Of a DNA stretch of 64,000 bases, positions 7,123 through 26,300 are shown one piece after another; positions within the stretch are counted from its first letter, which is position 1; each line of letters begins with the position of its first letter. The position numbers were made by a program, and so were the translations under genes. The notes below the pieces were generated by a model. That model saw only the letters and a list, made by a program, of their open reading frames with translations. It did not search any database and was not told the DNA's origin. Origin of the DNA: Bacteroidales bacterium (GTDB lineage Bacteria; Bacteroidota; Bacteroidia; Bacteroidales; JAADJA01); NCBI GenBank assembly GCA_026984135.1, contig JALSSR010000095.1:1840-65839 (forward strand), in the 5' to 3' direction.

Positions 7123-10100
7123 ATGAAAAATTATTTAGAGAAAAAAACAAAAGGGTATTCAAAAGGAATACTGATGGGATTTATCTCCCTAATGATCCTC
7201 GGCTCAACAAACATCTTTGCCCAGGTATCATTTACGCAAACCCTCAACGCCGATTTTTACAAAGGGGTCTATAACGACCTTACTGTGGCATCGGATAGTG
7301 TTTATTTGCCATATCAGGCCGATGATGTGAACAACTGGCTGACAACCACTGTTTTACCTCAAACACTTGAAGGGCATAAGGCGGCCACATGGAACAACCG
7401 TTATGTTTATGTTGTTGGTGGGTTTAACGATATAAGCTACTCCAGTTCGGTTTACCGGGCATCATTGCAGTCAGGAGGAATAAGTGGCTGGACAACTTTA
7501 AATCCCCTGCCTGTCGGATTGAGGGATGCTGCTGTTGTTATCGGAACAAATACCCTTTATGTACTTGGCGGCCGTGACGGTTCCAACATTTTTGATGATA
7601 TTTACTATGCGGAAATAAATTCCGATGGTTCACTCGGTACGTGGCAAACGTCTTCTGTAACACTGCCCGCAACACTCTGGGGGCATACTGCCGTTTATTG
7701 CAATGGTTATATTTATGTTGCGGGAGGTTCAAATAATTCTTCAGCCACTTCTGCCCGTTCAAATGTATATTATGCAAAAGTTCTGGCCGACAACACCCTC
7801 TCGGCATTTAGTGCGGCCACTTCATTGCCGCAAACCCGAAACGGACATAGTATGGTGGTTTACGGGGATAAAATTTATGTCCTCGGGGGTTTTTCAAACG
7901 GTGGTACAAAAAGAAATACCGTTTATTATGCCACCTCGGGAAATAACGGGTCTCTTGGGTCGTGGTCATCTGCAACTGCCTTGCCGGTAACTATCAGCAA
8001 TCATTCTTCGGTTATTATCAACGGTTTGATAACAGTTCTGGCGGGTGAAAGCGGCGGTACCTTGAGCAACAAAGTTTATTATGCCGACATCAATACTTCC
8101 CCTTTAACCTGGAACCTTGCCACCAATGTTATGTACGACCGAACCAAAGACGGAGCGGCTTTTGCCGCCAACGGCTGGATTGGATATTGCGGAGGTGAGA
8201 ACCTTTCGGGAACACCTATTCATAATTCCCGTTATGCAACACTTAATATTACAACAGATTATGAAAAAAACGGCTTCTTTGTCTCAAATCCGTTTTTTGA
8301 ACTGGGTGCTGAAAGAGAGATTACAAAACTGACATTTTTAACCTCAACACCCTCCGGTTCAAACTCGGAAATTGCCTACCGGACGGCAGGAGATGACCTG
8401 TATTGGGGCAACTGGTCGGCGCTTACCTCAACCAGTCCCATTATTCTCGGTATTACCGATCATTATCTCCAATACAAAGTTGTATTTACCGGAGACGGTA
8501 CAGTAACTCCGACATTTGATGAAATGACACTCTGGACACCGGGCACGGAACTTTCGGGCAACCTGAACAACTTAACATTGATTGATGCAGCCAGCAGCCC
8601 TTATTGGGTAACGAGCGATGTTTATTTTACATCGGGTACACATACATTTGAAGCAGGCGTTGTCTGGAATTTCCTTCCTCAAACGGGTTTAACGGTGGGC
8701 CAGGCAAATATGATATGTAACGGTACATCGGGTAATCCGGTTCAGTTTGTCGGTTATACGGATGATGACGGACTATGGGACGGTATTTATTTTGATGCGA
8801 ACAGTGATAACGGTGTTTCGTCACAGTTCCATTATGTAGTTATCAAAAATGCCGGATACGGTGACAACAATGCCAACCTGTATTGCAATTCTTCCAACGA
8901 GCCATTCCTTGATCATTGTACCATAAAGAATGCGGACGGAAATGGTATTCGACTGAACAATGCACATATCAACATTGAGTATTCCACTATTGAATACAAC
9001 AGTGAAAACGGTTTATATCTCGAAAATTCCAATCCGACATTGGTCTCCTGTGATGTTGGGCATAATGGTGCTGCAGGTGTATATTTCACCTCAAATACAT
9101 CCGATCCGACATACAGTTCTACAACGATTCACGACAATCTTTACGGAATGCATTATCCATCACCCAATAATACAATTTATCCCCCAAATGGCGACCCCAC
9201 TGTAATTAACAATACGTACAACGGTATCGCAATAGACGGAGGGGATATTACTTCAACCAATAAAGTATGGAATTCTATAAAGTATGATTACATCTTATTA
9301 GGTACGGTCAGGATTAAGCAATGGATGTCTAATGTTAGACTGACCATTGAACCGGGCAATACAGTTAAATCGGTCAGTGGTGCCCAAATACAGATTGGCG
9401 CCCCTAATTATGGCGGAGAACTTTATGCAATCGGCACGGTCGACAGTCTTATCACTTTTACGTCCTACAACGGATCAAGTGGCGGTTGGAACGGTATATG
9501 GTTTACCGACCAAAGCGATAACTGGGGAGGTGTTTCCGTAATGGATTATTGCATTATCGAAAATGGCAGCGATTATAATATATTTTCCCAAAGTACCGCC
9601 CAACCTAATATCAGTAATAGTATTGTACGTAATGCAGTGGTTGACGGAATTAGAAACTCAAACTCCTCGCATACCGTTCAAAACTCGCAATTCCTTAACA
9701 ACGGAAGATACCCGTATTACTTTTTGGATCCGAATGCCAACCCGGTACATACGGGAAACACCTATACCGGAAATGGTATCAACCGGATTGCACTTGAAGG
9801 GGGAACCTACCCCTGGGACAGGTCCTTGACCAACGATAATGTCCCCTATCTTGTATTGAACGATATTGTGATTGGTAAGTGGGGTGATCATTCGAGGCTG
9901 ACCATTGATCCTGGCGTAATTCTTGAGTTTGAATCAGGGAAAAAGCTGCAACTTGGCTATATCAATTGTGGTGGTGATCTGTGGGCCGAAGGTACTGCAG
10001 GTAATCCAATTACTTTCAGGCCATCTAACGGCTTGGAGGGAGGCTGGGAAGGTATTTACTTCACTGACTATAACGACAACTGGGGAGGTACCTCTTCAAT

Positions 10101-12270
10101 GAAATACTGCATTGTTGAAAAAGCCAACATCTATAATATCTCCTGCGAAAGTTCCGGCCAACCGAATATGGAAAATTGTACGATAAGGAATTCTGCAAAT
10201 GACGGCCTGAAGCTCTATAAATCGGACCCTCCGATTACCAACTGTCTTTTTCAGAACAACGGCGCATACCCAATCAATTATACCGACTGGACCTGTAATC
10301 CGCTTCTTACGGGAAATACCTATACCGGAAATAATCCTGATTACATTGCACTTTCGGGAGGGACATACGATGCCGACAGGACCATTTATAATGACGGCGT
10401 TCCCTACCTGATACTGGACGATATTGTGATGGGTAAGTGGGGTAATAATTCGAGGCTGACCATTGAACCCGGTGTAACACTTGCCTTTGTATCAGGGAAA
10501 AAACTGCAACTTGGCTTTATCAATCATGGTGGTGAACTGTGGGCCGAAGGCAATGCAGACAGCATAATCACATTTAAGCCGTATAATGATTCCATTGGTG
10601 GTTGGGAAGGTATTTACTTCAATAACTATAACGATAACTGGGGAGGTGCCTCTTCAATGAAATACTGCATTGTTGAAAAAGCCAATCTCTATAATATCTA
10701 TTGTGAAAGTTCCGGTCAGCCAAATATGGAAAATTGTACGATAAGAAATGCTGCAAATGACGGCTTAAAACTCTATAATTCGACTATTGGAATAATCAAA
10801 AATTCAACATTTTCCAACAATGGCGGGAATGGAATTTACATTGACGGATCAAGTAATCCCGTAATTGGAAATGACCCTGCTTTTACAAATAACCTTTTTG
10901 GCAACGGACTTTATGAAGTTTATAACAATACAACCAATAATATTGATGCACGTTATAATTATTGGGGGGCAGCCGATTCGGCTATGATCCATTCAAAGAT
11001 CTACGACTATTATGACAACACTTCCAAAGGGATCGTCATTTTCGAAGACTTTGCCCAAATACCTTCAGTAGGCGGAACTACAACTTTATTAAGCGGTAAT
11101 GTATGGTATAATAATGCTTCTTCCTCTCCCATGGAAAATGCCCTGATGGAGATTTTTGATTTTGGCGGAACTCCAATTTCCAGCACCAACACCAGTTCTT
11201 CCGGTCATTATTCATTCGGTTCCATTACTTCTGGAAATTATACAATGGACATTACGCCCGAAGATAGCTGGGGCGGTGTAAATTCAACGGATGCTTTGCT
11301 GATACTTAACCATTTTGCACATATAGATACACTCAAAGGAATGGAACTGGCTGCTTCGGATGTTAATCACAGCCAGACTGTTAATGGTACGGATGCACTG
11401 TTCGTGATGAAGCGCTATACGGGAATGATATCTTCCTTCCCTTCAGGTGACTGGTTGTACAATACCGAGAACCTGACAATAAATGGAAATCAGGTCGTAA
11501 ACGATTTTGCAATGCTTTGTTTTGGCGATGTGAATTCATCTTATGTACCGGCAAAAAAAGACGGAGAAAATGTTTCGCTTGTTTATGAAGGATCTCGGAT
11601 AATCCAGTCATTTACTGATTTTGATTTAACAATTTCAGTTAAGGATATGATAGAAATGGGAGCTGTTTCACTGGGGTTAACCTATCCGGAAGAATTTATG
11701 GAAATAAACGGTGCCGAGCTGTTAAATACATCCGGTAATGCGATTTTTACAGCTGATAATGGATTGTTCAGGATTGCCTGGGCGGACCTTAATAGTGTGA
11801 ATTACGAAGCCGGGGACGAAATGCTTGTCGTGCATTGTACAGCGAAAGATCTGAGTCTTATGCAGGAGCCGATTTTTGTTGGGCTTTATGGAGAAAGTGA
11901 ATTTGCCGATCCGACTGCACAGGTTATCAATAATGTAACGCTTGTTGTTCCCGAATTGACAACTCTGGCGGTTGGAATAAACAATCCCGCCGAGGAAGGA
12001 TTATGGCTGAGTGAAAACTATCCCAATCCTTTCACTCATTCAACGACAATCCGTTATCAAATTCCTGAATTCGGCAATGTGACCTTAAAAGTATTTGACA
12101 TAACAGGCGCGATTATCACCGAATTGGTCAACAGTCCGCAGAAAAAAGGTGAATATGCCGTCGAATTCAATTCTGAGGGACTGGAGCCGGGAATCTATTT
12201 CTATAAACTGGAATTCAGCAACTCGGAAAATCACAAAAGTTTGGTAAATAAAATGAGTGTAACACGTTAA
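7123..12270 (+). CDS. giant secreted surface protein: Kelch beta-propeller + repeated right-handed beta-helix modules + CarboxypepD_reg-like + dockerin-like + cohesin-like + T9SS C-terminal sorting domain
   Basis: 1715 aa with a signal peptide (LMILGSTNIFAQ). Kelch-like repeats (YVVGG, YVLGG, YVAGG, YVLGG). Beta-helix repeats (NxxxGIxL). Dockerin-like GGVNSTDALLILNHF...DVNHSQTVNGTDALFVMKRY. T9SS CTD NYPNPFTHSTTIRYQIPEFGNVTLKVFDITG...GIYFYKLEF. Confidence 0.85.
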   Translation: MKNYLEKKTKGYSKGILMGFISLMILGSTNIFAQVSFTQTLNADFYKGVYNDLTVASDSVYLPYQADDVNNWLTTTVLPQTLEGHKAATWNNRYVYVVGGFNDISYSSSVYRASLQSGGISGWTTLNPLPVGLRDAAVVIGTNTLYVLGGRDGSNIFDDIYYAEINSDGSLGTWQTSSVTLPATLWGHTAVYCNGYIYVAGGSNNSSATSARSNVYYAKVLADNTLSAFSAATSLPQTRNGHSMVVYGDKIYVLGGFSNGGTKRNTVYYATSGNNGSLGSWSSATALPVTISNHSSVIINGLITVLAGESGGTLSNKVYYADINTSPLTWNLATNVMYDRTKDGAAFAANGWIGYCGGENLSGTPIHNSRYATLNITTDYEKNGFFVSNPFFELGAEREITKLTFLTSTPSGSNSEIAYRTAGDDLYWGNWSALTSTSPIILGITDHYLQYKVVFTGDGTVTPTFDEMTLWTPGTELSGNLNNLTLIDAASSPYWVTSDVYFTSGTHTFEAGVVWNFLPQTGLTVGQANMICNGTSGNPVQFVGYTDDDGLWDGIYFDANSDNGVSSQFHYVVIKNAGYGDNNANLYCNSSNEPFLDHCTIKNADGNGIRLNNAHINIEYSTIEYNSENGLYLENSNPTLVSCDVGHNGAAGVYFTSNTSDPTYSSTTIHDNLYGMHYPSPNNTIYPPNGDPTVINNTYNGIAIDGGDITSTNKVWNSIKYDYILLGTVRIKQWMSNVRLTIEPGNTVKSVSGAQIQIGAPNYGGELYAIGTVDSLITFTSYNGSSGGWNGIWFTDQSDNWGGVSVMDYCIIENGSDYNIFSQSTAQPNISNSIVRNAVVDGIRNSNSSHTVQNSQFLNNGRYPYYFLDPNANPVHTGNTYTGNGINRIALEGGTYPWDRSLTNDNVPYLVLNDIVIGKWGDHSRLTIDPGVILEFESGKKLQLGYINCGGDLWAEGTAGNPITFRPSNGLEGGWEGIYFTDYNDNWGGTSSMKYCIVEKANIYNISCESSGQPNMENCTIRNSANDGLKLYKSDPPITNCLFQNNGAYPINYTDWTCNPLLTGNTYTGNNPDYIALSGGTYDADRTIYNDGVPYLILDDIVMGKWGNNSRLTIEPGVTLAFVSGKKLQLGFINHGGELWAEGNADSIITFKPYNDSIGGWEGIYFNNYNDNWGGASSMKYCIVEKANLYNIYCESSGQPNMENCTIRNAANDGLKLYNSTIGIIKNSTFSNNGGNGIYIDGSSNPVIGNDPAFTNNLFGNGLYEVYNNTTNNIDARYNYWGAADSAMIHSKIYDYYDNTSKGIVIFEDFAQIPSVGGTTTLLSGNVWYNNASSSPMENALMEIFDFGGTPISSTNTSSSGHYSFGSITSGNYTMDITPEDSWGGVNSTDALLILNHFAHIDTLKGMELAASDVNHSQTVNGTDALFVMKRYTGMISSFPSGDWLYNTENLTINGNQVVNDFAMLCFGDVNSSYVPAKKDGENVSLVYEGSRIIQSFTDFDLTISVKDMIEMGAVSLGLTYPEEFMEINGAELLNTSGNAIFTADNGLFRIAWADLNSVNYEAGDEMLVVHCTAKDLSLMQEPIFVGLYGESEFADPTAQVINNVTLVVPELTTLAVGINNPAEEGLWLSENYPNPFTHSTTIRYQIPEFGNVTLKVFDITGAIITELVNSPQKKGEYAVEFNSEGLEPGIYFYKLEFSNSENHKSLVNKMSVTR
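9208..10790 (+). repeat. three tandem ~181-186-aa modules inside the 7123 gene (copies start ~9208, 9751, 10309)
   Basis: Copies 2 and 3 share long identical nucleotide runs, e.g. tggggaggt.cctcttcaatgaaatactgcattgttgaaaaagccaa. Protein repeat: GNTYTGN...RLTI(D/E)PGV...GGWEGIYF..YNDNWGG.SSMKYCIVEKAN. Confidence 0.8.
12013..12267 (+). other. T9SS (Por) type-A C-terminal sorting domain of the 7123 gene product
   Basis: Last ~85 aa match the usual NYPNPF...V.L.V(F/Y)D..G......G.Y.Y.L pattern. Confidence 0.8.
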
Positions 12271-12281
12271 AAACCGTAATT

Positions 12282-15200
12282 ATGAAAACGAAATTTAAAA
12301 TATTCATTTCGGTGCTTTTCATAATTACCTGGCCGGTTTTATTGCAAAGTCAAACGATAAACACCACAGCCGGGTCGCCTTCGGAGTGCCCCGGGGAAAT
12401 TGTGGTTCCTGTAACGGTGACTAATTGCAGCGGCGTTGGAGCCATTTCCCTGACCCTTCAATACGATACGGTAGTCCTTACTTATTTGAATTATGAAAAC
12501 GTTCATACGGACTTAACATCAGGATTACTTGTTGTGAACCGGATCGGTAACAAGGTAATAATAAGTTGGGCTTCGACCACAGCTGCCAATATAGGTAGCG
12601 GAACCCTGATGGACATCCGTTTTTCGGGGGTTACAGGAAGCAGCAGCCTGACGTGGGACACACAAACACCGGGTAATTGTGAATACAGCGACTTAAACGG
12701 AAATATTCTTCCTTCTTCTTATACAAACGGTACGGCAACTGTTTATCAGGCACCGGAGATAATTGATTCTCCCGGTGATATTACTGCATTTGTGGGAGAT
12801 GATATCAGCTTTAGCGTGAATGCCGTAGCCGAAAATATAAGCAGATTATGGTACAAAAGTACGGATGGTGGATCAACCTGGGTTCCAACAGGCACAACCT
12901 CAGCTACAATTCATATTAATAATGTAACATTGGATATGAACGGATTTATGTACCGTTGTGAGATTAGCGGAACCTGCGGCCCTGTTGCTACATCCGATGC
13001 GGCAACACTAACCGTAATTCAACCGCTGATAACATCATTTGATATACAGAACGTTTGTCCGGGAAATATTACAATCCCAATACTGACATCCAATTTTACG
13101 GATGTAGCTTCCCTTTCCCTGGCATTTAGCTATGATACTTCAACTTTGACCTATTCGGGTTATCAGAATGTGAATTCATTATTACCCGGAAATTTTGTTT
13201 GTAATGAAGTTGGCGGGATGGTTTATATGTCATGGTCAACGACTTCACCCGTAACTTTCGGAACGGATACAACGCTTGTCGAAATCCGGTTTACCGGAAC
13301 AGCAGGAAGCAGCAACCTGACCTGGGATTTGACAACACCGGGTAATTGTGTTTACACCTATCTGAATGCGGATGAAATTGTTTCGGTATTTGAGAATAAT
13401 TCATTTACTATTTTTCAGGTACCGCAAATCAATATCCAACCTGTTGATAAACTGGTACCGGAAAATACCGGAACTAACTTTAGCGTGACAGCAGTAGCTT
13501 CGGGAATTCATTATCAATGGCAAATCAGTACCGATGAGGGTGGATTGTGGACAGACCTGAGTAATGGAAGCCAATACAGTGGCGTTACAAATGCAACACT
13601 AAACATTTTCAATACATACCTTTCGATGAGCGGTTATTTGTATAGATGTGTTGTGAGTGGATCTTGTACTCCCGATGCCATTTCCAATCCTGCAGAGTTG
13701 ACAGTTCTGCCAAAGATAACAGCTATAGCAGGAAACGTTTCCGACTGTCCGGGATCCATAATCGTTCCTATAGATGTAACCCATTTTATAGATGTTGCAG
13801 CCTTTTCCTTAACACTAAACTTTGATCAGACTATTTTAACGTTTGATAATTACCAATCGTTAAACAGCGCCTTGTCAGGTGGAGGTTTTGCTTTGAATGC
13901 AGTTGATGGAAAAGTTTACATGACCTGGACATCTACTACTCCGGCAACGATTGGTGACGATTTGCTATTGGAGTTGATTTTTACCGGAGTTTCAGGAAGC
14001 AGTACGCTTGCCTGGAATAATACTGATGAAGGTGCCTGTGAGTTCAGCGACATTGACGGGAACATTATTTTTGATAATTATGTTAACGGTAATGTAATTG
14101 TCTATCAACCACCCGTGATAACCGGCGATCCTGTAAATCAAACGGCTCCCGAAGGAACAAGCACCACATTTACGGTTTCGGCTTCCGGAACAGGCTTGAT
14201 CTATCAGTGGCAGGAAAGCATTGATAATGGGAGTAATTGGGTAGACCTGACAAACACCGGCCCTTATTCGGGGACAAATACTCCCACATTGCAAATCAGT
14301 CTCGTTGGACAAACAATGGATGATTATCAATACAGGTGCAGGGTGTCGGGCACATGTTCGCCACCGGCTTTTTCAGGTGCTGCAATATTACATGTGACAC
14401 CTCCCATAATAATTACTTCTGCCGGAGATATTACAAATTCCTGTACGGGAAATATTACCGTTCCGATAACCGTAAGTAATTGCAATAATGTTGGGGCCAT
14501 TTCCCTGGTTCTGAATTATGATAATACAAAACTAACTTTTGAGGGATACCAGTCGCCGAACAGCGAGTTAAACGGAGGGATGCTAATTGTAAATGCGACA
14601 GCTACACAGGTTATTCTCAGTTGGGTTTCTACAGATCCGGCAGACATAGGTTTTGGAACATTGATAGAATACAATTTCAAGGCCGATGCCGGTATTTCGA
14701 CAACACTTACCTGGGATACGCAAACACCGGGTAATTGTGAATACAGCGACCCTTTTGGAAATATATTTGCCACGGCATTTAATACCGGTGATATATCCAT
14801 TAATGCCAATGCTATAATAGTAGATGCGGGAAATGACGAGTCTATTACACCCGGAGGTTCGGTTCAACTTAATGGTTCCGTAACAGGAGGCACACCACCT
14901 TATATCATTCAATGGACACCAACAACCTGGCTGTCAGACCCGAACATCTTGAATCCCATTGCTGATCCGCCTTCTACAACAACATATACTTTGACAATAA
15001 CTGATGATGTTGGATGTACAGGCTCGGACAAAATGACCGTAAATGTTTCAACAGCAGGCATTGATCTTCATTTGAAAGCTTTTCTTGAAGGACCATTCAG
15101 CGGAACAGAGATGGGTACAGCATTGAACAGTAATAATATGATTCCTTTAAATCATCCCTATTCAGGGTCGCCATGGTATTATGGAGGTTCGGAATATGTA

Positions 15201-15731
15201 ACATCAATTCCCAATACGGATGTTGTTGACTGGGTGTTGGTTGAATTGCGCCAAACAAACGGACCGGCCTCAACGGCGACGAGCGGAAAAAGAATTGCAA
15301 GGCAGGCAGGATTTATCCTGAAAAACGGGAATATTGTTAAAACCGATGGTTCGGGTATGTTGCATTTTGATGTAACAATTACTCAAAACCTTTATGTAGT
15401 TGTCTGGCACCGAAACCATTTGGCAATTATGTCTTCCGGGCCTTTATCAAATGTTGGAGATACTTATTCCTGGGACTTCACCACAGGTTCCGGTCAGGCA
15501 TACGGAACAGATGCACAGAAAAACCTGGGTGGCGTTTACGGTATGTATGCAGGCGACGGTGATGCCAACGGAAAAGTCGAAACGGCTGACAAAAGTAATG
15601 TCTGGAGCGTACAGGTTGGTCGAACCGGTTATAAATCAGGTGACTTTGATATGAATAGTCAGGTGATGAATCAGGATAAAAATGAATTATGGGTACCCAA
15701 TGTTGGTAAAAATTCACAGGTGCCCGATTAA
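12282..15731 (+). CDS. scaffoldin-like secreted protein: (cohesin-like - Ig-like)x3 - cohesin-like - small beta domain - shared C-terminal dockerin-like module
   Basis: 1149 aa with a signal peptide. Four ~130-aa modules carry CPG.I.VP..V.....V.A.SL.L.YD...LT...Y......(approx aa 25-155, 246-378, 473-607, 701-835). They alternate with ~90-aa Ig-like modules (..YQWQ.S.D.G..W.DL...YSG....TL.I......YRC.VSG.C). Confidence 0.8.
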   Translation: MKTKFKIFISVLFIITWPVLLQSQTINTTAGSPSECPGEIVVPVTVTNCSGVGAISLTLQYDTVVLTYLNYENVHTDLTSGLLVVNRIGNKVIISWASTTAANIGSGTLMDIRFSGVTGSSSLTWDTQTPGNCEYSDLNGNILPSSYTNGTATVYQAPEIIDSPGDITAFVGDDISFSVNAVAENISRLWYKSTDGGSTWVPTGTTSATIHINNVTLDMNGFMYRCEISGTCGPVATSDAATLTVIQPLITSFDIQNVCPGNITIPILTSNFTDVASLSLAFSYDTSTLTYSGYQNVNSLLPGNFVCNEVGGMVYMSWSTTSPVTFGTDTTLVEIRFTGTAGSSNLTWDLTTPGNCVYTYLNADEIVSVFENNSFTIFQVPQINIQPVDKLVPENTGTNFSVTAVASGIHYQWQISTDEGGLWTDLSNGSQYSGVTNATLNIFNTYLSMSGYLYRCVVSGSCTPDAISNPAELTVLPKITAIAGNVSDCPGSIIVPIDVTHFIDVAAFSLTLNFDQTILTFDNYQSLNSALSGGGFALNAVDGKVYMTWTSTTPATIGDDLLLELIFTGVSGSSTLAWNNTDEGACEFSDIDGNIIFDNYVNGNVIVYQPPVITGDPVNQTAPEGTSTTFTVSASGTGLIYQWQESIDNGSNWVDLTNTGPYSGTNTPTLQISLVGQTMDDYQYRCRVSGTCSPPAFSGAAILHVTPPIIITSAGDITNSCTGNITVPITVSNCNNVGAISLVLNYDNTKLTFEGYQSPNSELNGGMLIVNATATQVILSWVSTDPADIGFGTLIEYNFKADAGISTTLTWDTQTPGNCEYSDPFGNIFATAFNTGDISINANAIIVDAGNDESITPGGSVQLNGSVTGGTPPYIIQWTPTTWLSDPNILNPIADPPSTTTYTLTITDDVGCTGSDKMTVNVSTAGIDLHLKAFLEGPFSGTEMGTALNSNNMIPLNHPYSGSPWYYGGSEYVTSIPNTDVVDWVLVELRQTNGPASTATSGKRIARQAGFILKNGNIVKTDGSGMLHFDVTITQNLYVVVWHRNHLAIMSSGPLSNVGDTYSWDFTTGSGQAYGTDAQKNLGGVYGMYAGDGDANGKVETADKSNVWSVQVGRTGYKSGDFDMNSQVMNQDKNELWVPNVGKNSQVPD
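15060..15728 (+). other. shared C-terminal module, copy 1 (223 aa, ends ...GKNSQVPD)
   Basis: IDLHLKAFLEGPFSG.EM...VDWVLVELR...HRNHLAIMS...GDGDANGKVETADKSNVW...GDFDMNSQVMNQDKNELW...QVPD. Alignable along its full length with copies at 17769, 21083 and 25977. Confidence 0.85.
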
Positions 15732-15926
15732 AATAAAGCCGGGCAGGGCTTTTTCCCTGTGACGGCCGGACGTTCTTTATACCGAAAGAAATCAGGTTTG
15801 CAACTTTATTGGTTGATTTCTTTCGAGTATAACTGGTTCTAAGAAGGTTTGTTTTTGCAAACATGTCAAGAACCAGTATACATCTTCGCAAAACCGGACT
15901 TGACATCCGGAATAATATCCGAATTA

Positions 15927-15958
15927 ATCCCCGCTTTATTTCAAAGCGGGGATTTTTT
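15927..15958 (+). terminator. rho-independent terminator-like hairpin
   Basis: ATCCCCGCTTT-atttc-AAAGCGGGGAT followed by TTTTT. Confidence 0.6.
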
Positions 15959-15992: not shown

Positions 15993-18437
15993 ATGAAAAG
16001 AATTTTCTCTTTATTCATACTACTTTTGATGCTGCTGTCACAAGTATATTCAGATAGCGTCCCCATTGCAAAAGCTCATAAAATTGCCCGGAATTTTTTT
16101 GAATTATGTTTTTCTAAGAATAAAACATTTGAAAGAGAACTTTCTTCCGCAATTGCCAGTGACGGTTATTTTGTATTCAATCTGAAAAACAATGATGGAT
16201 TTATTATTGTTTCGGGGGATGATGATTTGCCTCCGGTTCCGGGATACTCCTTCTCGGGAAGTTTTGATAATGACAATAATAATGAAGCATTCCGTCTTTG
16301 GATGAAGGGGTTTTCGGCTTCAAGAGCTAATGGGAAAAGTTTGTCTGAGATCAAATCGGAATGGAATAAATTGTTAAAAGGTGATTCGGGAAAATCTGTT
16401 ACCGGAGTTGGTCCGCTTCTTACAATTGCCTGGGGACAAGCCTGTTACTATAATGCTAAGTGTCCCGTTGATTCCAATGGAAATTGTTACCACGCACGAA
16501 CAGGCTGCGGAGCAACCGCAATGGCTATGATAATGAAGTACTGGGAATTTCCCGCTCACGGTTATGGCGGCAATTCTTATCAAAGTCCTCTTTACGGGAA
16601 TATTTCCGCCGATTTTGAAAATACTTGGTACGACTGGCAAAATATGCCTCCCAAACTCTATTCCACAAGTGATACCGTACAGGTTAATGCCGTTGCCCAA
16701 TTGATGTTTCATTGTGGTGTGGCAGTGAATATGGTTTACGGACCTGCTGCATCCTCTTCCGATGAGTGGAATATCAGAAATGCTTTTACCAACTATTTCA
16801 AATATTCTTCACAATCACAGTATCTTGATAAAGCCGATTTTGCCGATACCGTTTGGAGAGATATTATGAAAAATGAGATTGATAACGGAAGACCTGTTTT
16901 TTACGAGATATCTTCCGGTTCGGGAGGCCATTTCGTTGTTATGGACGGATATCAGGACGACGACTATTTTCATTTTAACTGGGGCTACGGAAACCTAAAC
17001 GGCTATTATAAAACCTTTGACGAACTCCCTGTTATCCAGCAGGCTATAGTAAATATAAAACCCAATAGCGATACGGTTTCCGGAACTGCAACATTTTATT
17101 CCTACAACGGAATATTTAATGATGGAAGTAACGAAGAGAATTATCTGCCGGGGAAAACATTTTCCTGGCTCATTGAACCTGAAGATGCCACATCGTTGGC
17201 CTTGATGTTCACCCGGTTTTCGACTGAGTATAAAGCCGATTTTGTAAACATTTACGACGGTGATAATATTACGGCACCTTTACTGGGAAGTTTTTCCGGG
17301 CACAAATTGCCGCCCGTAATTCAAACATCCGGCAACAAGGCTCTTGTCAGGTTTGTTACAAATGACTCCGTTACCGATGCTGGATGGGAACTGCGGTTTA
17401 CAACTTTGCGAAACGGTTATTCTTGTTCCGGCGTTTCCCTGTTGACCGACTCCACAGGCACTTTTGACGACGGAAGCGGAAGCTCGAATTATATTGACAA
17501 TGCCGACTGCTTTTGGCTGATAAAGCCCGATACGGCAAGCAGTATTACTCTCCATTTCGATAATTTTAACACCGAAAAGGACTGGGATTTTCTATATGTT
17601 TACAAAGGTGAAAATCCTGCTCCCGAAAATCTTCTCGCAACACTGACTGGGAACATTTCTCCGGCTGACATAACTTCCACGGAAGGCGCGATGCTACTGC
17701 ACTTTCATTCCGACTGGAATACAAACCGGCCGGGTTGGCAGGTCTCCTATACAACCGGCTATGAAAAGATTTATCTTGATTTAAAAGTGTTTCTCGAAGG
17801 GGCTTTCACCGGGACTTCGATGGATACGAATCTGAGGCAGTTTATTCCTTTGTCGCAACCATTTGACAATAATCCTTCGGCAAATTATTATTACGAAGGT
17901 ACGGAAAGTGTTAATGAAATGCCTTTGGGTGTTGTGGATTGGCTATTGATTGAATTGCGCAACGCCGCAAGTGCATCCCTTGCTACCGGCGAAACAATAG
18001 TTGCACGTCAGGCTGCGCTTCTAACCGATAACGGTCGGATAGTAAATACCGACGGGTCATCTGTTTTATCGTTTAATCATTTTGTCAATCAATCTTTATT
18101 TGTGGTCATATATCATCGCAACCATTTGCCCGTTATGACAGCCAATCCGCTTACGGAATCGGGAGGGATTTATACATACGACTTTACAACGCCAGCCGGG
18201 CAGGCCTATGGAACCGATGCACAGAAAAACCTTGGGAGTGTTTATGGTATGTATGCCGGGGATGCCAATTGTGACAATTCCATTAATATTTCTGACCTTG
18301 CCGATTTTTGGTTAGACGAAACCGGATTACAGGGATACCTTAATTCGGACTTAAATTTGGACGGACAATCGAATAATATTGATAAAAATGATGTCTGGTT
18401 GCCGAATGAGGGGAAGGAATGCCAGGTGCCGGAATAA
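15993..18437 (+). CDS. secreted C10-family (streptopain-like) cysteine peptidase with two CUB-like domains and the shared C-terminal module
   Basis: Start moved to MKRIFSLFILLLMLLSQVYS (signal peptide). Spi-inhibitor-like N-terminal propeptide. Catalytic Cys context TGCGATAMAMIMKYWEFP and His context GGHFVVMDGY. Two CUB-like segments (GTFNDGSNEENY..., GTFDDGSGSSNY...). Confidence 0.8.
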   Translation: MKRIFSLFILLLMLLSQVYSDSVPIAKAHKIARNFFELCFSKNKTFERELSSAIASDGYFVFNLKNNDGFIIVSGDDDLPPVPGYSFSGSFDNDNNNEAFRLWMKGFSASRANGKSLSEIKSEWNKLLKGDSGKSVTGVGPLLTIAWGQACYYNAKCPVDSNGNCYHARTGCGATAMAMIMKYWEFPAHGYGGNSYQSPLYGNISADFENTWYDWQNMPPKLYSTSDTVQVNAVAQLMFHCGVAVNMVYGPAASSSDEWNIRNAFTNYFKYSSQSQYLDKADFADTVWRDIMKNEIDNGRPVFYEISSGSGGHFVVMDGYQDDDYFHFNWGYGNLNGYYKTFDELPVIQQAIVNIKPNSDTVSGTATFYSYNGIFNDGSNEENYLPGKTFSWLIEPEDATSLALMFTRFSTEYKADFVNIYDGDNITAPLLGSFSGHKLPPVIQTSGNKALVRFVTNDSVTDAGWELRFTTLRNGYSCSGVSLLTDSTGTFDDGSGSSNYIDNADCFWLIKPDTASSITLHFDNFNTEKDWDFLYVYKGENPAPENLLATLTGNISPADITSTEGAMLLHFHSDWNTNRPGWQVSYTTGYEKIYLDLKVFLEGAFTGTSMDTNLRQFIPLSQPFDNNPSANYYYEGTESVNEMPLGVVDWLLIELRNAASASLATGETIVARQAALLTDNGRIVNTDGSSVLSFNHFVNQSLFVVIYHRNHLPVMTANPLTESGGIYTYDFTTPAGQAYGTDAQKNLGSVYGMYAGDANCDNSINISDLADFWLDETGLQGYLNSDLNLDGQSNNIDKNDVWLPNEGKECQVPE
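17769..18434 (+). other. shared C-terminal module, copy 2 (222 aa, ends ...GKECQVPE)
   Basis: IYLDLKVFLEGAFTG.SM...VDWLLIELR...HRNHLPVMT...GDANCDNSINISD...DLNLDGQSNNIDKNDVW...QVPE. Confidence 0.85.
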
Positions 18438-18490
18438 AATCTAACACAGAGCGTTTTTACAAATTAAAATATAATCATAAAACAAAAAAA

Positions 18491-21400
18491 ATGACAAAGT
18501 ATCTTTTATTCGTGTTTCTACTTTCGATAAACAATCTTTTCGCGCAATTCCCACCCGATACCATCTGGGAGCCGCAAGCACCTGCCGCCTTGCCGATGCC
18601 GGCCTATTTGCAGGCAGTCCGGGATACCGCCCGCAATATTGATATTACGCGTATCAGCGATACGCTTGCTTTTGGTGTACCGCCGGGCGCGGGAGCCTTG
18701 ATGCCGCAATATGCGAAAATCCAATCGTGGAACGCCGATATGTCCAAAATCCTTGTGGGCTATGTGCATATCCTTAACGCCGATGATTACACCATTTACA
18801 AAAATATCGCAAACGCCTATCAGGGAGGATATTTCAACGATGGCCGGTGGTCAAATACCGATCCCGACATACGGTATTTTTGTTGGGGGGATAATTTTTT
18901 GAAAATAAATATTGAAACTGAAGAAATTGATACGTTACAAAACTTTCCCAATTATGTTGTTACAATTGGCCCCTACGAAGGCAATATTTCGGCAGATGAC
19001 AAATATGTCGTTATTACGAACGATACGGCCATTCAGGGCTTTAACGTCGGGAACAGGGCTTCGCTTTACGATATTGAACTTGATACCGTAGTGGCAAGCA
19101 GGCATTTTCCCGGCTGGGGCTTCGACTGGGCATCCATAACCCCTTCAGGTGATTATATCGCAGTCTCAAATTATGAAACCGATAAAATAGAATTATATGA
19201 CCTTGATTTCAATTTTGTCAAGGTTTTGCTGAACAATACCGAACACGCCGATTTTGCCGTTGATGCCAACGGTGATGAGGTAATCGTGCAGGTAATTCCG
19301 CTATCAATGACAAGGTTGTCCGATAATCATTTTACAGATTTGATAACCGATGCGACATTGTGCGGCTGGCCCCACGAAAACCCCAGTATTGCCGGGCATG
19401 TTTCGGGTAGGAATTTTAATCTCCCGGGATGGGCTTATGTTTCGGCACAAATAAATGAATGCGGCAACGGGAACGGATTTTATTACGACACGGAAATATT
19501 TGCCGTAAAATTAGACGGAAGCGGTACGATACGCCACTTCGGACATGCCCGGTCATCTTTTTCGTCATACGACAGTTATGCAAAAGCAAGCGTCAGCCCC
19601 GACGGCACAAAAATGATTTTCAGTTCCGATTGGAATTTATATCCCAATCCCGATAATACCGTTTATGCTTATGTCTCGGAATTTCACAAAAGTCAATCCC
19701 ACTATGTTTCAACAAGCGGCAATAATGCAAATCCCGGATCAGAAGCCCATCCTTGGCTGACAGTGCAATACGGCCTTGACCATATTTTTTCGGGCGATAC
19801 CTTGATAATCATGGCAGGGGTTTACAATGAAAAAGTGATTGTTCCGGTTTCAGGTGTTTTAATTAAAAACTATCCAAATCAAAATGCCATCCTTGACGGC
19901 ACGGGACTGACCTATTCCGATGCAATTATGGAAATAACCGATCAATCCGATATTACCATCCAAGGGCTCGAAATCGCCAATAATGTGCAACTCGATGCAC
20001 AGGGGATTTTGATTTCGGGAAATTGCCAAAACATTACAATAAAGAACAATAAAATACACGACATCTATTTTTCATCCGACCCAAATGCTCCCGTTAATGA
20101 AAACACAAATAGTCAGCCCCTGATAGTTTACGGAACGCAAACAACGGCTATCTCAGGCTTGCTGATTACCGGAAACGAAATTTACAACTGCCGTCCGGGG
20201 TTTAGCGAGGCATTGTCAATTGATGGGAATGTGGACGGTTTTGATATTAGCAACAATCTGATCCATGACATAACCAACATCGGGATAGTTGCTGCAGGGC
20301 ATTACCAGGTATGCCCCGACCCTTTGCTTGACCAACCTCGAAACGGTGTCATTAAAAACAATCAAACTTATAATTGTCGTTCGCCATACGCAGCTTCGGG
20401 CGGCATTTATGTTGACGGTGCAAAAGATATAGTAATCGAAAATAATACTACTTATCAAAACGATTATGGTATTGAAGTTGGATGCGAAATTACCGGTAAA
20501 TCGGCATCGGGGATTATCGTTAAAAACAACATGATATACAATAACCGGATTACCGGTATTGCTTTCGGTGGTTTTGATTATCCGGCAGGTTCGGGAAAAA
20601 TTGAATCCTGTACTTTAAACAATAATACCCTTTTTCAAAACGATTCCATTAGTGATTACAATGGGGAAATGCTGATTACCTATACCGAAAATTGCAATAT
20701 TTTTAATAATATTTTCAGTACGACAAATCAGGACATAGCTTTTTATCTTGATATTGCTCCGGTCAACCTTTTTTTGGATTACAACCTTTATTTTTGCCCG
20801 GGGGGAAATATTTCTCTGGAGTTTAGTTGGAACGGAACAACCTATATGGGGCTTTCATATTTCCGGAACGGAACGGGGCAAGCTGCACATTCCATTTTCG
20901 GTGACCCGCAATTTGTTTCGGCTCTTTTGCCGACTCCCGACCTTCATTTACAAAACACATCCCAAGCTGTAGATAATGGTGATCCTGCTTATGTTCCCGC
21001 AACTGGCGAAACGGATATTGACGGGGAAAACCGAATTGTTAATTTCATAGTTGAAATAGGTGCCGATGAATTGACCGGAATATTGCTCGACCTGAAAGTT
21101 TTTCTTGAAGGACCTTTTAACGGAACGGAAATGAACCCCTCGTCAGGCTTGGAATCCTTTCCGTTAGCCCAACCGTACAATGTTGCCCCTTGGAATTATC
21201 AGGGGACTGAATCGGTAGTATCAATACCCAGTGGAACGGTGGATTGGGTATTGATTGAATTGCGCGATACAACCGAGGCTTCATTGGCAACCCCTGAAAC
21301 CGTAATTGCGAGACAAGCTGCATTATTGATGAATGATGGGAAAATTGTTGATACGGCAGGTACAAACGTACTGACGTTCATCTCAAAATCCGTATCGAAC

Positions 21401-21748
21401 AACCTGTTCGTGGTAATACGGCACAGAAACCATCTCGCCATTATGTCGGCAAATCCGGTAACCGTATCAGGCGGCATTTATTCATACGATTTCACTACGG
21501 CAATAACACAGGTTTACAATGGAGGTGCAGGGTATAAAGAGATAGCAACGGGCGTTTACGGAATGGTGGGCGGCGATGCCAATGCCGACGGCACTATTGA
21601 CGCAGCCGACAAAACCCTCTGGGCAAACGATGCCGGTACCAAAGGCTACAAAGCCACCGACCACAATATGGACGTTCAGGTGGACAACCGGGACAAAAAC
21701 GGTACGTGGGCAGGGAACGGGGCATATTCGGGGCAGGTGCCCCAATGA
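18491..21748 (+). CDS. secreted protein: TolB/PD40-like beta-propeller + right-handed beta-helix (pectin-lyase fold) + shared C-terminal module
   Basis: Start moved to MTKYLLFVFLLSINNLFAQ. Propeller-like strands (SADDKYVVITND, TPSGDYIAVSN, VSPDGTKMIFSSDWN). Beta-helix repeats (ITIKNNKIHD, ISNNLIHD, IENNTTYQN, VKNNMIYNN). Confidence 0.8.
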   Translation: MTKYLLFVFLLSINNLFAQFPPDTIWEPQAPAALPMPAYLQAVRDTARNIDITRISDTLAFGVPPGAGALMPQYAKIQSWNADMSKILVGYVHILNADDYTIYKNIANAYQGGYFNDGRWSNTDPDIRYFCWGDNFLKINIETEEIDTLQNFPNYVVTIGPYEGNISADDKYVVITNDTAIQGFNVGNRASLYDIELDTVVASRHFPGWGFDWASITPSGDYIAVSNYETDKIELYDLDFNFVKVLLNNTEHADFAVDANGDEVIVQVIPLSMTRLSDNHFTDLITDATLCGWPHENPSIAGHVSGRNFNLPGWAYVSAQINECGNGNGFYYDTEIFAVKLDGSGTIRHFGHARSSFSSYDSYAKASVSPDGTKMIFSSDWNLYPNPDNTVYAYVSEFHKSQSHYVSTSGNNANPGSEAHPWLTVQYGLDHIFSGDTLIIMAGVYNEKVIVPVSGVLIKNYPNQNAILDGTGLTYSDAIMEITDQSDITIQGLEIANNVQLDAQGILISGNCQNITIKNNKIHDIYFSSDPNAPVNENTNSQPLIVYGTQTTAISGLLITGNEIYNCRPGFSEALSIDGNVDGFDISNNLIHDITNIGIVAAGHYQVCPDPLLDQPRNGVIKNNQTYNCRSPYAASGGIYVDGAKDIVIENNTTYQNDYGIEVGCEITGKSASGIIVKNNMIYNNRITGIAFGGFDYPAGSGKIESCTLNNNTLFQNDSISDYNGEMLITYTENCNIFNNIFSTTNQDIAFYLDIAPVNLFLDYNLYFCPGGNISLEFSWNGTTYMGLSYFRNGTGQAAHSIFGDPQFVSALLPTPDLHLQNTSQAVDNGDPAYVPATGETDIDGENRIVNFIVEIGADELTGILLDLKVFLEGPFNGTEMNPSSGLESFPLAQPYNVAPWNYQGTESVVSIPSGTVDWVLIELRDTTEASLATPETVIARQAALLMNDGKIVDTAGTNVLTFISKSVSNNLFVVIRHRNHLAIMSANPVTVSGGIYSYDFTTAITQVYNGGAGYKEIATGVYGMVGGDANADGTIDAADKTLWANDAGTKGYKATDHNMDVQVDNRDKNGTWAGNGAYSGQVPQ
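21083..21745 (+). other. shared C-terminal module, copy 3 (221 aa, ends ...YSGQVPQ)
   Basis: LLDLKVFLEGPFNG.EM...VDWVLIELR...HRNHLAIMS...GDANADGTIDAADKTLW...DHNMDVQVDNRDKNGTW...QVPQ. Confidence 0.85.
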
Positions 21749-21934: not shown

Positions 21935-22341
21935 GGTTCTTATCAGGTTTGCCCCGACCCTCTGCTTGACCAACCGTGAAGCGGTGTCATAGAAAACAAT
22001 ACTGCTTATCAAAACGATTCGATCAATGATTTCAAAGGTGAAATTCTGATAAGCTATACAAAACATTACACTGTTTTTAATAATATTTTCAGTACGACAA
22101 ATTAGGACATAGCCTTTTATCTCGATGTTTCTCCTGTAAACCTCTCTTTGAAATGTTCGGCGGCGATGGGAATGCAGATGGAAACATCACCGGTTATGAT
22201 AAAGATATCATCTGGAAACCGGCAGCCGGTACAAAAGGATATTTAAATGCCGATTTCAACCTGAAAGATCAGGTTGAAAACAAGGATAAAAATGATGTCT
22301 GGACGGATAACCTGAATGTTCCCGAGCAGGTTCCTAAATAA
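21935..22341 (+). pseudogene. decayed paralog of the 18491 gene (mosaic of its 3' half with large deletions; last 62 codons still open, ending EQVPK)
   Basis: Nucleotide stretches match 20306-20370, ~20440-20470, ~20650-20780 and ~21555-21748 of the upstream gene. There is an in-frame TAG (acaaattaggac versus acaaatcaggac). The 22153-22341 ORF keeps GDGNADGNITGYDK...DFNLKDQVENKDKNDVW...QVPK. Confidence 0.75.
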
Positions 22342-23319: not shown

Positions 23320-23339
23320 AAACTTTTAAAATATATAAT

Positions 23340-26300
23340 ATGAAGACACTAATCAATTTTTTAACGGTAATATTTTTCCTGACCATTGGCGTGTCGGGAT
23401 TAAATGCAGCAATAATCCACTCTATGCCCACAGGGGGCAACTGGCATGAAACAACCACCTGGCAGGAAGGCGTAGTCCCCGGCCCCACCGATGACGTGGT
23501 TATTGTCGGCGGAAGTACCGTCATTGTATATAATGCCGGACACGAATGCCACAACCTGACCCTTGAAAACAGCGCAGTATTGCAAAACCGCACCTATTCT
23601 AACCAGACACTATTGGTGCACGGAAACATATCCAATTACGGTTCGATTCAAAACAACACTTCTTATTCCTTAACAATTAACCTTGAAGGTAATTTCGATA
23701 ATTATGGTTTGGTAAACAATTTTCGTATCAAATTTACCGGAAACTCCGGGCACGAAGTATATTGCGATGCGGGAGATGTTTTTGAATGTACATATTTTGA
23801 AGCAGCCGACACTACGGGCAACTTGTCCCTTTTGAACAATATTGAATTTATCGGTACGGTCATTGACCTCAACGGCGTTGAAATCATAGGAAACACCTAT
23901 GCTGTCAAACTGTCCGGCGGCAGTTATGTTCAGGAAACCACCATCCATGATTTTACGGTTCAGGGAAAATTCATCTTTCGTTCTTCGGTATTTTTTGAAG
24001 GGGAAATCATTGTTCAGGACACTTTGTATAAACCTCTAAATAGCAATCTCAACCTCTATATTGACGGCAACCTGACAAACAATGGCGTAATCACAAAACC
24101 CAATTACAATTTCAACATTTACATCACCGGAAATATTGTGAACAACGGGCAATGGCTATGTAATGCCGTTCATTTTACGGGTACCGGATTGCAAAACGTT
24201 TCACTCGGAAGCGGAAAAGTCTTTGATTGTACTTATTGGATTGATGACGATAGCGGTTCTGCTATCGAAGCGCTTACGGATTTGTCGTTTACGGGTACGA
24301 ACATTGACCTGAACGGCAGCACCTTGACCTTGCCCAACGGCGGTCATACATTAAGTCTATCGGACGGATATATAAAAGATGGGGAAGTAAACTTTAATTA
24401 TGGGACATTGTTTATGGAAAACGATGCTTATATTGGTTCAGATTTATTGCTTGATAATGTTACTCTTGAAGGGGTTGTACAGTTGCGTAATAATGGTATC
24501 GAATTTTCGGGCGATATAATCAATAATGCCTTTTTGCGGAATTATGTTAATTCTAATATTTCTACCACCATCACCGGGAATATTACCAACAACGATACTA
24601 TTACCGATCCCAATTATAACTTTTACCTTAATGTAACCGGGAATATTACCAATAATGGGGTTTGGTCGATTAATCGAACAAATCTTACGGGCAGCGGCAA
24701 CCATACTATATCGCAAGGTGCAAGCGATATCTTTTCGGGAAATTATTTTAATGCGGCTGATACCACAGGAAATATTACCGCCCTTAGCGATATAACATTT
24801 GAAGGAACCAATATTGACCTTAACGGGCGTACATTGACAATGCCTGCCACAAAGGGTTCATTGCTCAGTCTGTCCGGTGGGTACATACAGGATGGGGAAG
24901 TAAATTTTAATTACGGGACATTGTTTATGGAAAACGATGCTTATATTGGTTCAGATTTATTGCTTGATAATGTTACTCTTGAAGGGGTTATCCAATTGCG
25001 TAATAATGGTATCGAATTTTCGGGCGAAATAATCAATAACGCCTTTTTGCGGAATTATGTTAATTCTAATGTTTCTACCACCATCACCGGAAATATTACC
25101 AACAACGACACTGTTACAGATCCAAACTATACTTTTACCCTCAATGTTACGGGAAATATTATCAATAATGGGATTTGGTCAATTTCTCACACCAACCTGA
25201 CAAGTACAGGACCACACACTTTATCATTGGGCAGCGGAAAATTGTTTTCGGGAAATTATTTCGAAGCCGAAGCAGGGACAGGGCTTATCACCGCCACCAA
25301 CGATATTGTTTTTCTCGGAACAGATGTTGACCTCAATGGCAGTGAAATGGCGATGCCCGATGAAAAACGGTTTTCCATACTCGGCACCTCAACGAATAAT
25401 GCTCATTTGGACGATGGCACCCTCAGCGGCGATAACTTTGAATTTGAAGGTAACGATTATTCCGATTTTGAGAATATCACATTCTCGGGTAATGTAACTT
25501 TATTCGGAAATGTAAGAGCGGTTGCCAGTGCCGATACTTTCCTTGGGGATGTGGATGTGCGCGATACGCTCAGCACCCGTACAAATACAAACTCCACGCT
25601 TACCATCGAAGGCAGGTTGATCAACAACGGCGCGATCATCAACAGCAATTACCATCTTTTTTTAAATTGCCACGGTCATCTTGTCAATAATGGTACATGG
25701 ACAAATTCCCAAACTACACTGAACGGCACAGAAGACCAGTTGATTTATCTTGTCTCGCAAAAACCTATTGATGGCTATGTCAGTTTTGACGCTGTTAATG
25801 GAAGTAACCCTTTTCAGTGGTACCTCGAAGACACCGTTTTGAACTCACTGGATTTTACGGGGGAAACATCCCAAATCCTGAACTGGCAAGTCCCTGTTTC
25901 CGATACTTATAGCGGTGATTTCTATTGCATCGGCAGCGGCGACACTTCAAGAACGATTGTTGTAAAAAGCGGTATTATCGTTGACCCGAAAATTTATTTG
26001 CAAGGACCTTACAACGGAACGGATATGAATACCGATTTATCTGATTTGGGTTTAATTCCATTAAACCAGCCGTTCAATATGTCGCCGTGGAATTATAATG
26101 GTAGCGAAACCGCACCCTCTATCCCTTCCGATGTGGTTGACTGGGTTTTGGTCGAACTCCGGCAAACTTCCGGCGGACCCGAAACCGCCACTTCCGGCAC
26201 CATTGTGATGCAGCGTGCATTATTGCTGAGGAATGACGGAGTAGCGATAGACCCCTATAATTTTACACCCGAATTAAAGTATGATATTCAGGTAACGGGT

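Follow-up and report, generated by a model that had tools for sequence, protein, structure and literature searches.

Cohesin-dockerin assemblies are the textbook machinery of Gram-positive cellulolytic Firmicutes, and the locus described here raises the question of whether a Gram-negative bacterium of the Bacteroidales also builds one, and out of which proteins. The locus lies in a stretch of 64,000 nucleotides (hereafter the window; contig JALSSR010000095.1, positions 1,840 to 65,839 of the forward strand) in assembly GCA_026984135.1 of a Bacteroidales bacterium (4.17 Mb, 92% complete), and centres on an open reading frame (ORF) at 12282..15731 (+) whose product, called scaffoldin B below, has 1149 amino acids (aa) and a typical Sec signal peptide. 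A preliminary description drawn from the sequence had taken this protein to be scaffoldin-like, with cohesin-like modules separated by immunoglobulin (Ig)-like spacers. Our analysis indicates that the gene almost certainly encodes a cohesin scaffoldin, and we consider it reasonably probable that B is the chief scaffoldin in a cohesin-dockerin assembly of non-cellulosomal type, belonging to an uncultured Bacteroidales lineage that bears a type IX secretion system (T9SS).

Scaffoldin B and its four cohesins

When B was searched against Pfam, the Cohesin family (PF00963) matched it in four stretches with an E-value of 8e-23 and a score of 81.6 bits, against a cut-off of 24.1. Each module taken alone scored 24.0-35.0 bits in a six-frame search of the genome, so that the weakest passes only with its neighbours. 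Over about 132 aa, modules 2 to 4 share 43-49% of their residues with module 1, 27 alignment columns being invariant, and a module profile re-found all four at E-values of 1e-60 to 1e-64, far beyond chance. Searched against PDB sequences, B alone matched the cohesin 2xdh of Archaeoglobus fulgidus as its best single-sequence match, and a profile of the four modules matched 2xdh and the ScaB cohesin 4ums (E = 0.0036).

The order of modules on B is signal peptide, cohesin 1, Ig, cohesin 2, Ig, cohesin 3, Ig, cohesin 4, PKD-like module and X-dockerin, all encoded on the + strand. Cohesin 1 (aa 25-156; 12354..12749) was identified by Pfam and by the structural model described below, cohesin 2 (aa 249-379; 13026..13418) by Pfam and the module profile, with a support of 0.95 for the position-2 clade in the tree of 31 orthologues, cohesin 3 (aa 478-609; 13713..14108) by Pfam, module alignment, module profile and module tree, and cohesin 4 (aa 709-842; 14406..14807) by a best Pfam Cohesin stretch at aa 724-824 and a support of 0.997 for the position-4 clade. 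These profile boundaries fall within about 25 nucleotides of those first proposed for four modules of about 130 aa, and the motifs then quoted are present, save that module 4 has CTGNITVP instead of CPG.

Between the cohesins lie Ig-like spacer 1 (aa 157-248; 12750..13025; Pfam ig and Ig_3), spacer 2 (aa 380-477; 13419..13712; Pfam) and spacer 3 (aa 610-708; 14109..14405; best Pfam Ig_3 stretch at aa 610-689), each also placed by the spacer alignment; they are mutually 40-44% identical, and the Pfam Ig_3 match has an E-value of 4e-14. All carry the W, YRC and SG(T/S)C blocks first described for them, but the alternation extends to three spacers only, with none after module 4. Beyond that module, B has a PKD-like or Ig-like linker module (aa 843-922; 14808..15047), which gave a weak PDB sequence match to the Ig-like decoration protein 5lxk, and then a C-terminal module of 225 aa. 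PF22352 occurs in the precomputed Pfam domain lists of several B orthologues, lists which do not state its location within those proteins.

The cohesin fold is a nine-stranded flattened beta-sandwich (jelly-roll) with Ca2+-dependent dockerin binding on its 8-3-6-5 face; type I cohesins are compact, at about 140 aa, and type II and type III cohesins have an extra helix and beta-flaps, at about 160-190 aa. An AlphaFold2 model of cohesin 1, made from an alignment of 36 modules of B and its orthologues, was all-beta (predicted local distance difference test score, pLDDT, 97.2; predicted template modelling score, pTM, 0.89), and the top 50 Foldseek matches of this model in the PDB were all cohesins, with template modelling (TM) scores up to 0.85. 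The best was again 2xdh (E = 2e-11, TM 0.84/0.81, root-mean-square deviation 2.5 A, 26% identity), followed by Clostridium acetobutylicum CohA2 (6kgc), 4ums and 1g1k. As the best fold matches are type I-like, and type II and type III cohesins rank lower (TM 0.62-0.76, against 0.78-0.85 for type I cohesins and 2xdh), the B modules, at 132 aa, are by this model compact, type I-like cohesins. Many of their conserved residues lie on predicted strands 3, 5, 6 and 8, which is only suggestive of a dockerin-binding face.

The preliminary description had proposed pairwise comparison, domain profiles and structure prediction as checks on its cohesin reading, and had set a generic BIg or FN3 fold beforehand as the outcome that would overturn it; such a fold is excluded, because all 50 top matches are cohesins. 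The view that the modules are generic Ig or FN3 repeats, with a cohesin likeness that is a coincidence at the level of motifs, retains virtually no probability: we found no support for it, Ig_3 matches being confined to the spacers, and it is refuted by the Pfam Cohesin score of the whole protein together with the unanimous Foldseek result. The cysteines noted near both module ends are indeed invariant, in the four modules of B and in 124 of 124 orthologue modules, which makes a disulfide between them plausible.

B thus combines what defines a scaffoldin, namely four cohesins and a signal peptide on one polypeptide in which Pfam and NCBIfam find no catalytic domain. The same two libraries gave no carbohydrate-binding module (CBM) family on B, though a CBM is typical of primary cellulosomal scaffoldins, and the NCBIfam search of the B protein returned zero matches. 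By protein search, about 35 cluster representatives of 1144-1159 aa share the architecture of B, all of them from uncultured Bacteroidales metagenome bins and all named "hypothetical protein". In an unrooted tree of 124 cohesins from 31 of these orthologues, positions 2, 3 and 4 each formed a clade, with position 1 as the remainder of the tree, and cohesins at the same position were 60-68% identical across the orthologues (38-48% between different positions). Since same-position modules cluster and exceed the identity found between positions, the four-module array is, on this comparison, old, with each position retained from a time before the orthologues split. Four distinct binding sites would fit this pattern, which is no proof of them, and the four positions may differ in binding preference.

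The C-terminal module and its carriers

Three proteins encoded nearby have C-termini 44-49% identical to the last 225 aa of B: a C10 peptidase that also has CUB domains, a beta-helix protein and a protein of 1112 aa. All four proteins end in QVP(D/E/N/Q). The whole module gave zero matches in Pfam, NCBIfam and PDB sequences, and its nature became apparent only from the predicted structure and from a profile restricted to the tail. The AlphaFold2 model of B aa 923-1149 (227 aa, aligned with 32 paralogues; pLDDT 97.1, pTM 0.93) showed a beta-sandwich and then two helices, as one rigid unit. Six of its seven best Foldseek matches were X-dockerin-containing chains of type II cohesin-dockerin complexes (4u3s_B, 4wi0_B, 4fl4_L, 2b59_B, 5k39_B and 4fl4_C; Foldseek probability 0.92-1.0), with 3kcp_A and 5g5d_B lower, and the best of them, 4u3s_B, matched with E = 1.6e-3, a Foldseek probability of 1.0 and a TM score of 0.61 by target length. 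In the model, the C-terminal unit folds as an X-module packed on a divergent two-repeat dockerin, which we call the X-dockerin (XDoc) dyad; the X-module (aa 926-1086; 15057..15539) is a beta-sandwich with strands up to model residue 166, and the dockerin (aa 1087-1149; 15540..15728) ends in QVPD.

A type I dockerin repeat consists of a Ca-binding loop with D/N at positions 1, 3, 5, 9 and 12, followed by a helix. The XDoc tail shows the dockerin layout of two such repeats of about 22 residues, with two Ca-loops visible in the tail alignment and helices at model residues 179-189 and 208-218; the helices have a conserved DKN(D/E)xW, ahead of the QVP(D/E/N/Q) end. A profile of 26 tails matched solved dockerins (4dh2_B at 1.4e-5; also 5nrm_B, 2vn6_B, 2ccl_B, 1ohz_B and 2b59_B), and of the 26 tails searched singly, 15 gave Pfam Dockerin_1 matches with E <= 1 (lowest E-value 1.5e-7). 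Three standard XDoc tails reached 19.1-19.5 bits for Dockerin_1 in the six-frame genome search, below the cut-off. Above it, at 30.1 bits, was the canonical Dockerin_1 tail that completes the same module in C264_5084, a paralogous protein from this genome with four cohesins. Internal duplication of the two repeats is a hallmark of dockerins, and in relatives from other classes of the phylum the two repeats are almost perfect internal duplicates.

In loci L166-L171 of those other classes (genomes G167, G128 and G097), the dockerin half was nearer the canonical form, and in G167 the XDoc ends in (I/V)RY in place of QVPx. A separate specificity class for scaffoldin-borne XDocs was considered and rejected, as a tree of 285 modules clustered only close orthologues and the consensus tails were alike.

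Across the genome, 47 ORFs carry the XDoc module, 40 of them in full and B among them, and in nearly all carriers it forms the extreme C-terminus of a protein with a signal peptide. Two proteins (C306:9680-13282 and C69:9922-12570; loci L162 and L146) have it internally, with a Fibrobacter succinogenes major paralogous domain after it. When 39 carriers were tallied by Pfam family, they comprised peptidases of families C10 (two), M14 (two), C25, S8 and C1, together with GEVED (five), beta-helix (three), PKD, Fib_succ_major, an arylsulfotransferase and a starch-binding protein, and many of the 39 had no known domain. No glycoside hydrolase (GH) was found among the 25 commonest Pfam families of these own-genome carriers, so the cargo is not dominated by plant cell wall glycoside hydrolases as that of a cellulosome is. 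In other bins, XDoc was found on C25, M14, C1 and S8 peptidases and on GH18 and GH55. The genome further holds 12 Pfam cohesins in about five proteins, three anchor-type proteins and few canonical dockerins; one of its secreted proteins, of 206 aa (C133:1073-1690), consists of a single cohesin only (Pfam E = 2.8e-9), a free cohesin.

Searched against 1.84 billion cluster representatives at 50% identity, the XDoc profile found 14,534 at E <= 1e-3 and 3,707 at E <= 1e-30. The nearest genomes were bins of Bacteroidales recovered at Zodletone spring, at 750 m in the Black Sea, in a deep mine and in Danish soils or sediments. Some metagenomic proteins, P0002 and P0123 among them, have 3 to 5 XDoc copies in tandem and could act as multivalent connectors. 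XDoc-bearing C25/S8 peptidases were also filed under 'Candidatus Thermoplasmatota archaeon' bins (P0027, P0031 and P0097); with 55-59% identity to the Bacteroidales module, they look like mis-binning and not like an archaeal system.

Among 301 genomes of the phylum, 43 had XDoc, 91 had cohesins and 22 had both (odds ratio 2.9, p = 0.002, uncorrected for phylogeny). A strict co-distribution of XDoc and cohesins was rejected, the association being positive but loose. The breadth of cohesin occurrence in this survey accords with a reading of B as a passive surface fibre or adhesin, in which the cohesins would serve as rigid spacers or bind non-protein ligands and would have no dockerin partner; lone non-cellulosomal cohesins without a known partner are common (Peer et al. 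2009, as reported in PMC8542988), and the closest structure to cohesin 1 is an orphan of this kind, 2xdh. We consider this reading very unlikely, given the strict positional conservation of the four-cohesin array, the expansion of about 40 dockerin-type modules in the same genome, and the pairing of the B gene, in three loci, with a gene for a protein that has both a dockerin and a cohesin-like module.

Protein A, the surrounding locus and the route to the surface

The partner gene in this pair encodes protein A (1715 aa; 7123..12270, +), which Pfam resolved into Kelch, Beta_helix, Dockerin_1 and Por_Secre_tail matches, with TIGR04183 also found. In order, it has a Kelch propeller with beta-helix repeats, a dockerin, a cohesin-like module and a T9SS C-terminal domain (CTD). 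The dockerin (aa 1384-1431; 11272..11415, +) is canonical, at 30.3 bits for Dockerin_1 against a cut-off of 22.9, and was found in the six-frame search as well; the T9SS type A sorting domain (aa 1633-1706; 12019..12240, +) matched PF18962 at E = 4e-10 and TIGR04183 at 34.8 bits against 23. The putative cohesin-like module (about aa 1486-1612; 11578..11958, +) was placed via paralogues: two of them have tails that align throughout with the C-terminal 400 aa of A (C264, E = 6e-47; C90, E = 5e-10), and the counterpart of the module in C90 is a Pfam Cohesin at 50.3 bits. Both paralogues stand directly upstream of another gene for a multi-cohesin and XDoc protein.

Upstream of A are a TPR/His_kinase sensor (3520-5634), a Response_reg+LytTR regulator (5715-6452) and a small LytTR protein (6572-7060), all on the + strand and identified by Pfam. 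A gap of 11 nucleotides, free of any terminator, separates the stop of A from the start of B, and an intrinsic terminator with a 12-bp stem and then a T run follows B (15926..15954, +), which makes 15926-15954 the likely end of an A-B transcript. A and B are probably expressed as one transcript under the LytS-like/LytTR regulators upstream. Two orthologous loci (L164 and L165) have an A-like gene (1712-1720 aa) and then a B-like gene with the same 11-nucleotide gap. In L165 the full order is sensor kinase, response regulator with LytTR, small LytTR protein, A-like and B-like gene; the L164 segment starts inside the response regulator gene, and an extra gene with a T9SS CTD precedes its small LytTR gene. 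The genes after B are unrelated in these loci, one having a transposase there and the other a type I restriction system. Because they differ in this way, the XDoc genes after B in the window are, by this comparison, local additions, and the conserved unit is regulators, A and B.

These additions, all on the + strand, comprise the XDoc modules of the C10 peptidase/CUB protein (17763..18434; module alignment; Pfam Peptidase_C10, Inhibitor_I69 and CUB), of the beta-helix protein (21074..21745 in gene 18419-21748; module alignment and profile) and of the 1112-aa protein (25968..26648 in gene 23313-26651; module alignment and profile). A frame of 85 aa between two intact genes matches profile positions 161-225 only (22144..22338; contig C95:23983-24177) and is, by that match, a decayed XDoc paralogue which has retained the last third. 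The listed TTG start of the C10 peptidase ORF (15849) is upstream of the terminator; the true start is probably the ATG at about 15993, with a product beginning MKRIFSLFILLL, a predicted signal peptide. Further downstream is a gene for a TMEM260-like protein O-mannosyltransferase (window 30715-33783), also present in locus L164 (18981-22050), which may glycosylate surface proteins.

The preliminary description had also remarked that four cohesins match four intact genes with the C-terminal module in the locus. The count is right, and the match is coincidental: the genome holds about 40 full module copies, one of the four genes is that of B itself, and the two orthologous loci with the same four cohesins have no module genes after B.

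The genome encodes more than 150 T9SS type A sorting domains, and characterised C25 and C10 peptidases of the Bacteroidota (gingipains, PrtT) carry a T9SS CTD at their C-terminus. B and the XDoc proteins have Sec signals and end in XDoc, with no T9SS CTD (PF18962/TIGR04183) and no lipobox, and the C25, C10, M14 and S8 peptidases of the lineage have XDoc in the place where characterised Bacteroidota relatives have the CTD. A type II secretion route for these CTD-less proteins was set aside, as no secretin was found in the genome (92% complete). It is conceivable, if quite unlikely in our estimate, that XDoc has replaced the T9SS CTD in position and, in part, in function, either by piggy-back or as a sorting signal. 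In the first case XDoc proteins could bind in the periplasm to the cohesins of CTD-bearing substrates such as protein A and be co-exported folded; in the second, XDoc itself could be a new class of T9SS sorting signal. Either route, if true, would be a new way across the Bacteroidota outer membrane.

The proposed assembly, its rivals and its relatives

In the assembly that we propose, XDoc units would dock on the four cohesins of B in a Ca2+-dependent manner, so that one scaffoldin would hold up to four enzymes or adhesins, and the XDoc of B itself would dock on the cohesin-like module at the C-terminus of A. The T9SS would export protein A and tie it to the outer membrane, and the A-B link would fix the complex on the cell surface, where it would gather peptidases and adhesins on particulate substrate. 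Because of this cargo of peptidases and adhesin-like proteins, the likely job of the complex would be surface-bound protein breakdown and particle adhesion, not cellulose degradation. Judged from sequence and models, it is moderately likely that XDoc is the binding partner of the B cohesins, and we name protein A as the anchor of the complex tentatively, with chances a little short of even.

Several observations weigh against this assembly. Clostridial XDoc dyads bind type II or type III cohesins, and the B cohesins, being type I-like, are unlike those partners. Scaffoldin-borne and enzyme-borne XDoc tails show no clear consensus difference, and as the tails are alike, a basis for the hierarchy (B to A, enzymes to B) is not visible. 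The Foldseek E-values of XDoc are modest even for the best match, whose TM score falls to 0.45 by query length, so the weight of the modelled fold match comes from the agreement among the top matches; B's own tail yields no Pfam Dockerin_1 (PF00404) score. The cohesin-like module of A is inferred through paralogues only, Pfam making no cohesin call for it. For passage across the outer membrane, B and the cargo, which have Sec signals, have neither a T9SS CTD nor, in this genome, a secretin. Finally, co-occurrence is loose, with 21 of the 43 XDoc genomes lacking a Pfam cohesin, and three multi-copy XDoc genomes had no cohesin even at E <= 1, G097 being among the cohesin-less.

In a rival arrangement, the B cohesins would instead bind the canonical dockerins of A-type anchors, B cross-linking up to four A proteins and XDoc serving as a secretion or attachment device with another receptor. 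A and its two paralogues have Pfam-grade Dockerin_1 domains and are each encoded directly upstream of a multi-cohesin gene, the type I-like class to which the B cohesins belong binds plain dockerins, XDoc is present in genomes without detectable cohesin, and it occupies the C-terminal place of the T9SS CTD of gingipains and PrtT. We nevertheless regard this arrangement as unlikely: canonical dockerins number only 3-4, compared with 12-16 cohesins and about 40 XDocs, both the sequence profile and the modelled fold identify the XDoc tail as a dockerin in its own right, and the two proteins with an internal XDoc speak against a strictly C-terminal signal.

The closest architecture to the proposed B-XDoc assembly is that of clostridial scaffoldins with a type II XDoc, CipA of Acetivibrio/Clostridium thermocellum and ScaA of Acetivibrio cellulolyticus. 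Like these, B has several type I-like cohesins on one secreted polypeptide and ends in a predicted X-module packed on a dockerin, with 2b59, 4u3s, 4fl4 and 5k39 among the best fold matches; as in their systems, the presumed anchor protein has its own cohesin (in A, a cohesin-like module) beside a surface-attachment module, and many dockerin-bearing enzymes are spread over the genome. The differences are that the host is a Gram-negative member of the Bacteroidales, that B has no CBM and that the cargo consists of peptidases and adhesin-like proteins. In addition, the enzymes here bear the full XDoc dyad, of the same kind as that of the scaffoldin, and not a plain dockerin; the X-module is larger, at about 160 aa; the dockerin helices have the DKN(D/E)xW motif, and QVP(D/E/N/Q) closes the chain; and the presumed anchor A has a T9SS CTD where those systems use S-layer homology (SLH) repeats. 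The closest solved structure to cohesin 1, 2xdh, is by comparison a lone archaeal module, with no array and no conserved Cys pair.

A cellulosome-like complex has been predicted from InterPro domains of bins of Ca. Stygibacter (Cloacimonadota; Williams et al. 2021, PMC8542988). Like the lineage studied here, Ca. Stygibacter belongs to the Fibrobacterota-Chlorobiota-Bacteroidota (FCB) group, has only metagenome-assembled genomes and comes from an anoxic habitat, and it has dockerins on C25 gingipain-like and S8 peptidases and on GH18, with a cohesin-array scaffoldin tied to the T9SS through a CTD. In that system the scaffoldin itself has the CTD together with CBM2/CBM3, whereas here a separate putative anchor has the CTD and B has no CBM; its dockerins are recognised by InterPro, whereas the XDoc dyad is missed by domain libraries. 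The amylosome of Ruminococcus bromii and the mucinolysome of Limousia (PMC4611034, PMC12997984) are, like the assembly proposed here, cohesin-dockerin assemblies for non-cellulose substrates, but they belong to Firmicutes and have glycan-degrading cargo and plain dockerins, with binding shown experimentally for the amylosome. Rumen metagenomes have yielded counts of dockerins and cohesins attributed to Bacteroidetes, with no system described (PMC6487960), and our full-text literature searches found no account of the B scaffoldin, the XDoc family or such a system in Bacteroidales.

If the proposed assembly is right, a complete cohesin-dockerin set would exist in a Gram-negative, T9SS-bearing Bacteroidales lineage of anoxic sediments and springs, with a mostly proteolytic and adhesive cargo, comprising a conserved four-cohesin scaffoldin, about 40 docking-module proteins, anchor-type proteins and dedicated regulators. 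It would make concrete the question of how proteins lacking a CTD get to the surface beside a T9SS. The compact cohesins, with their predicted disulfide brace, and the new dockerin class may be of use in designer protein assemblies. XDoc is a large family, of about 14,500 clusters at 50% identity, for which Pfam and NCBIfam have no model, so that standard annotation does not see such systems; a definition of the XDoc family would alter the reading of thousands of "hypothetical" C-termini in environmental Bacteroidota.

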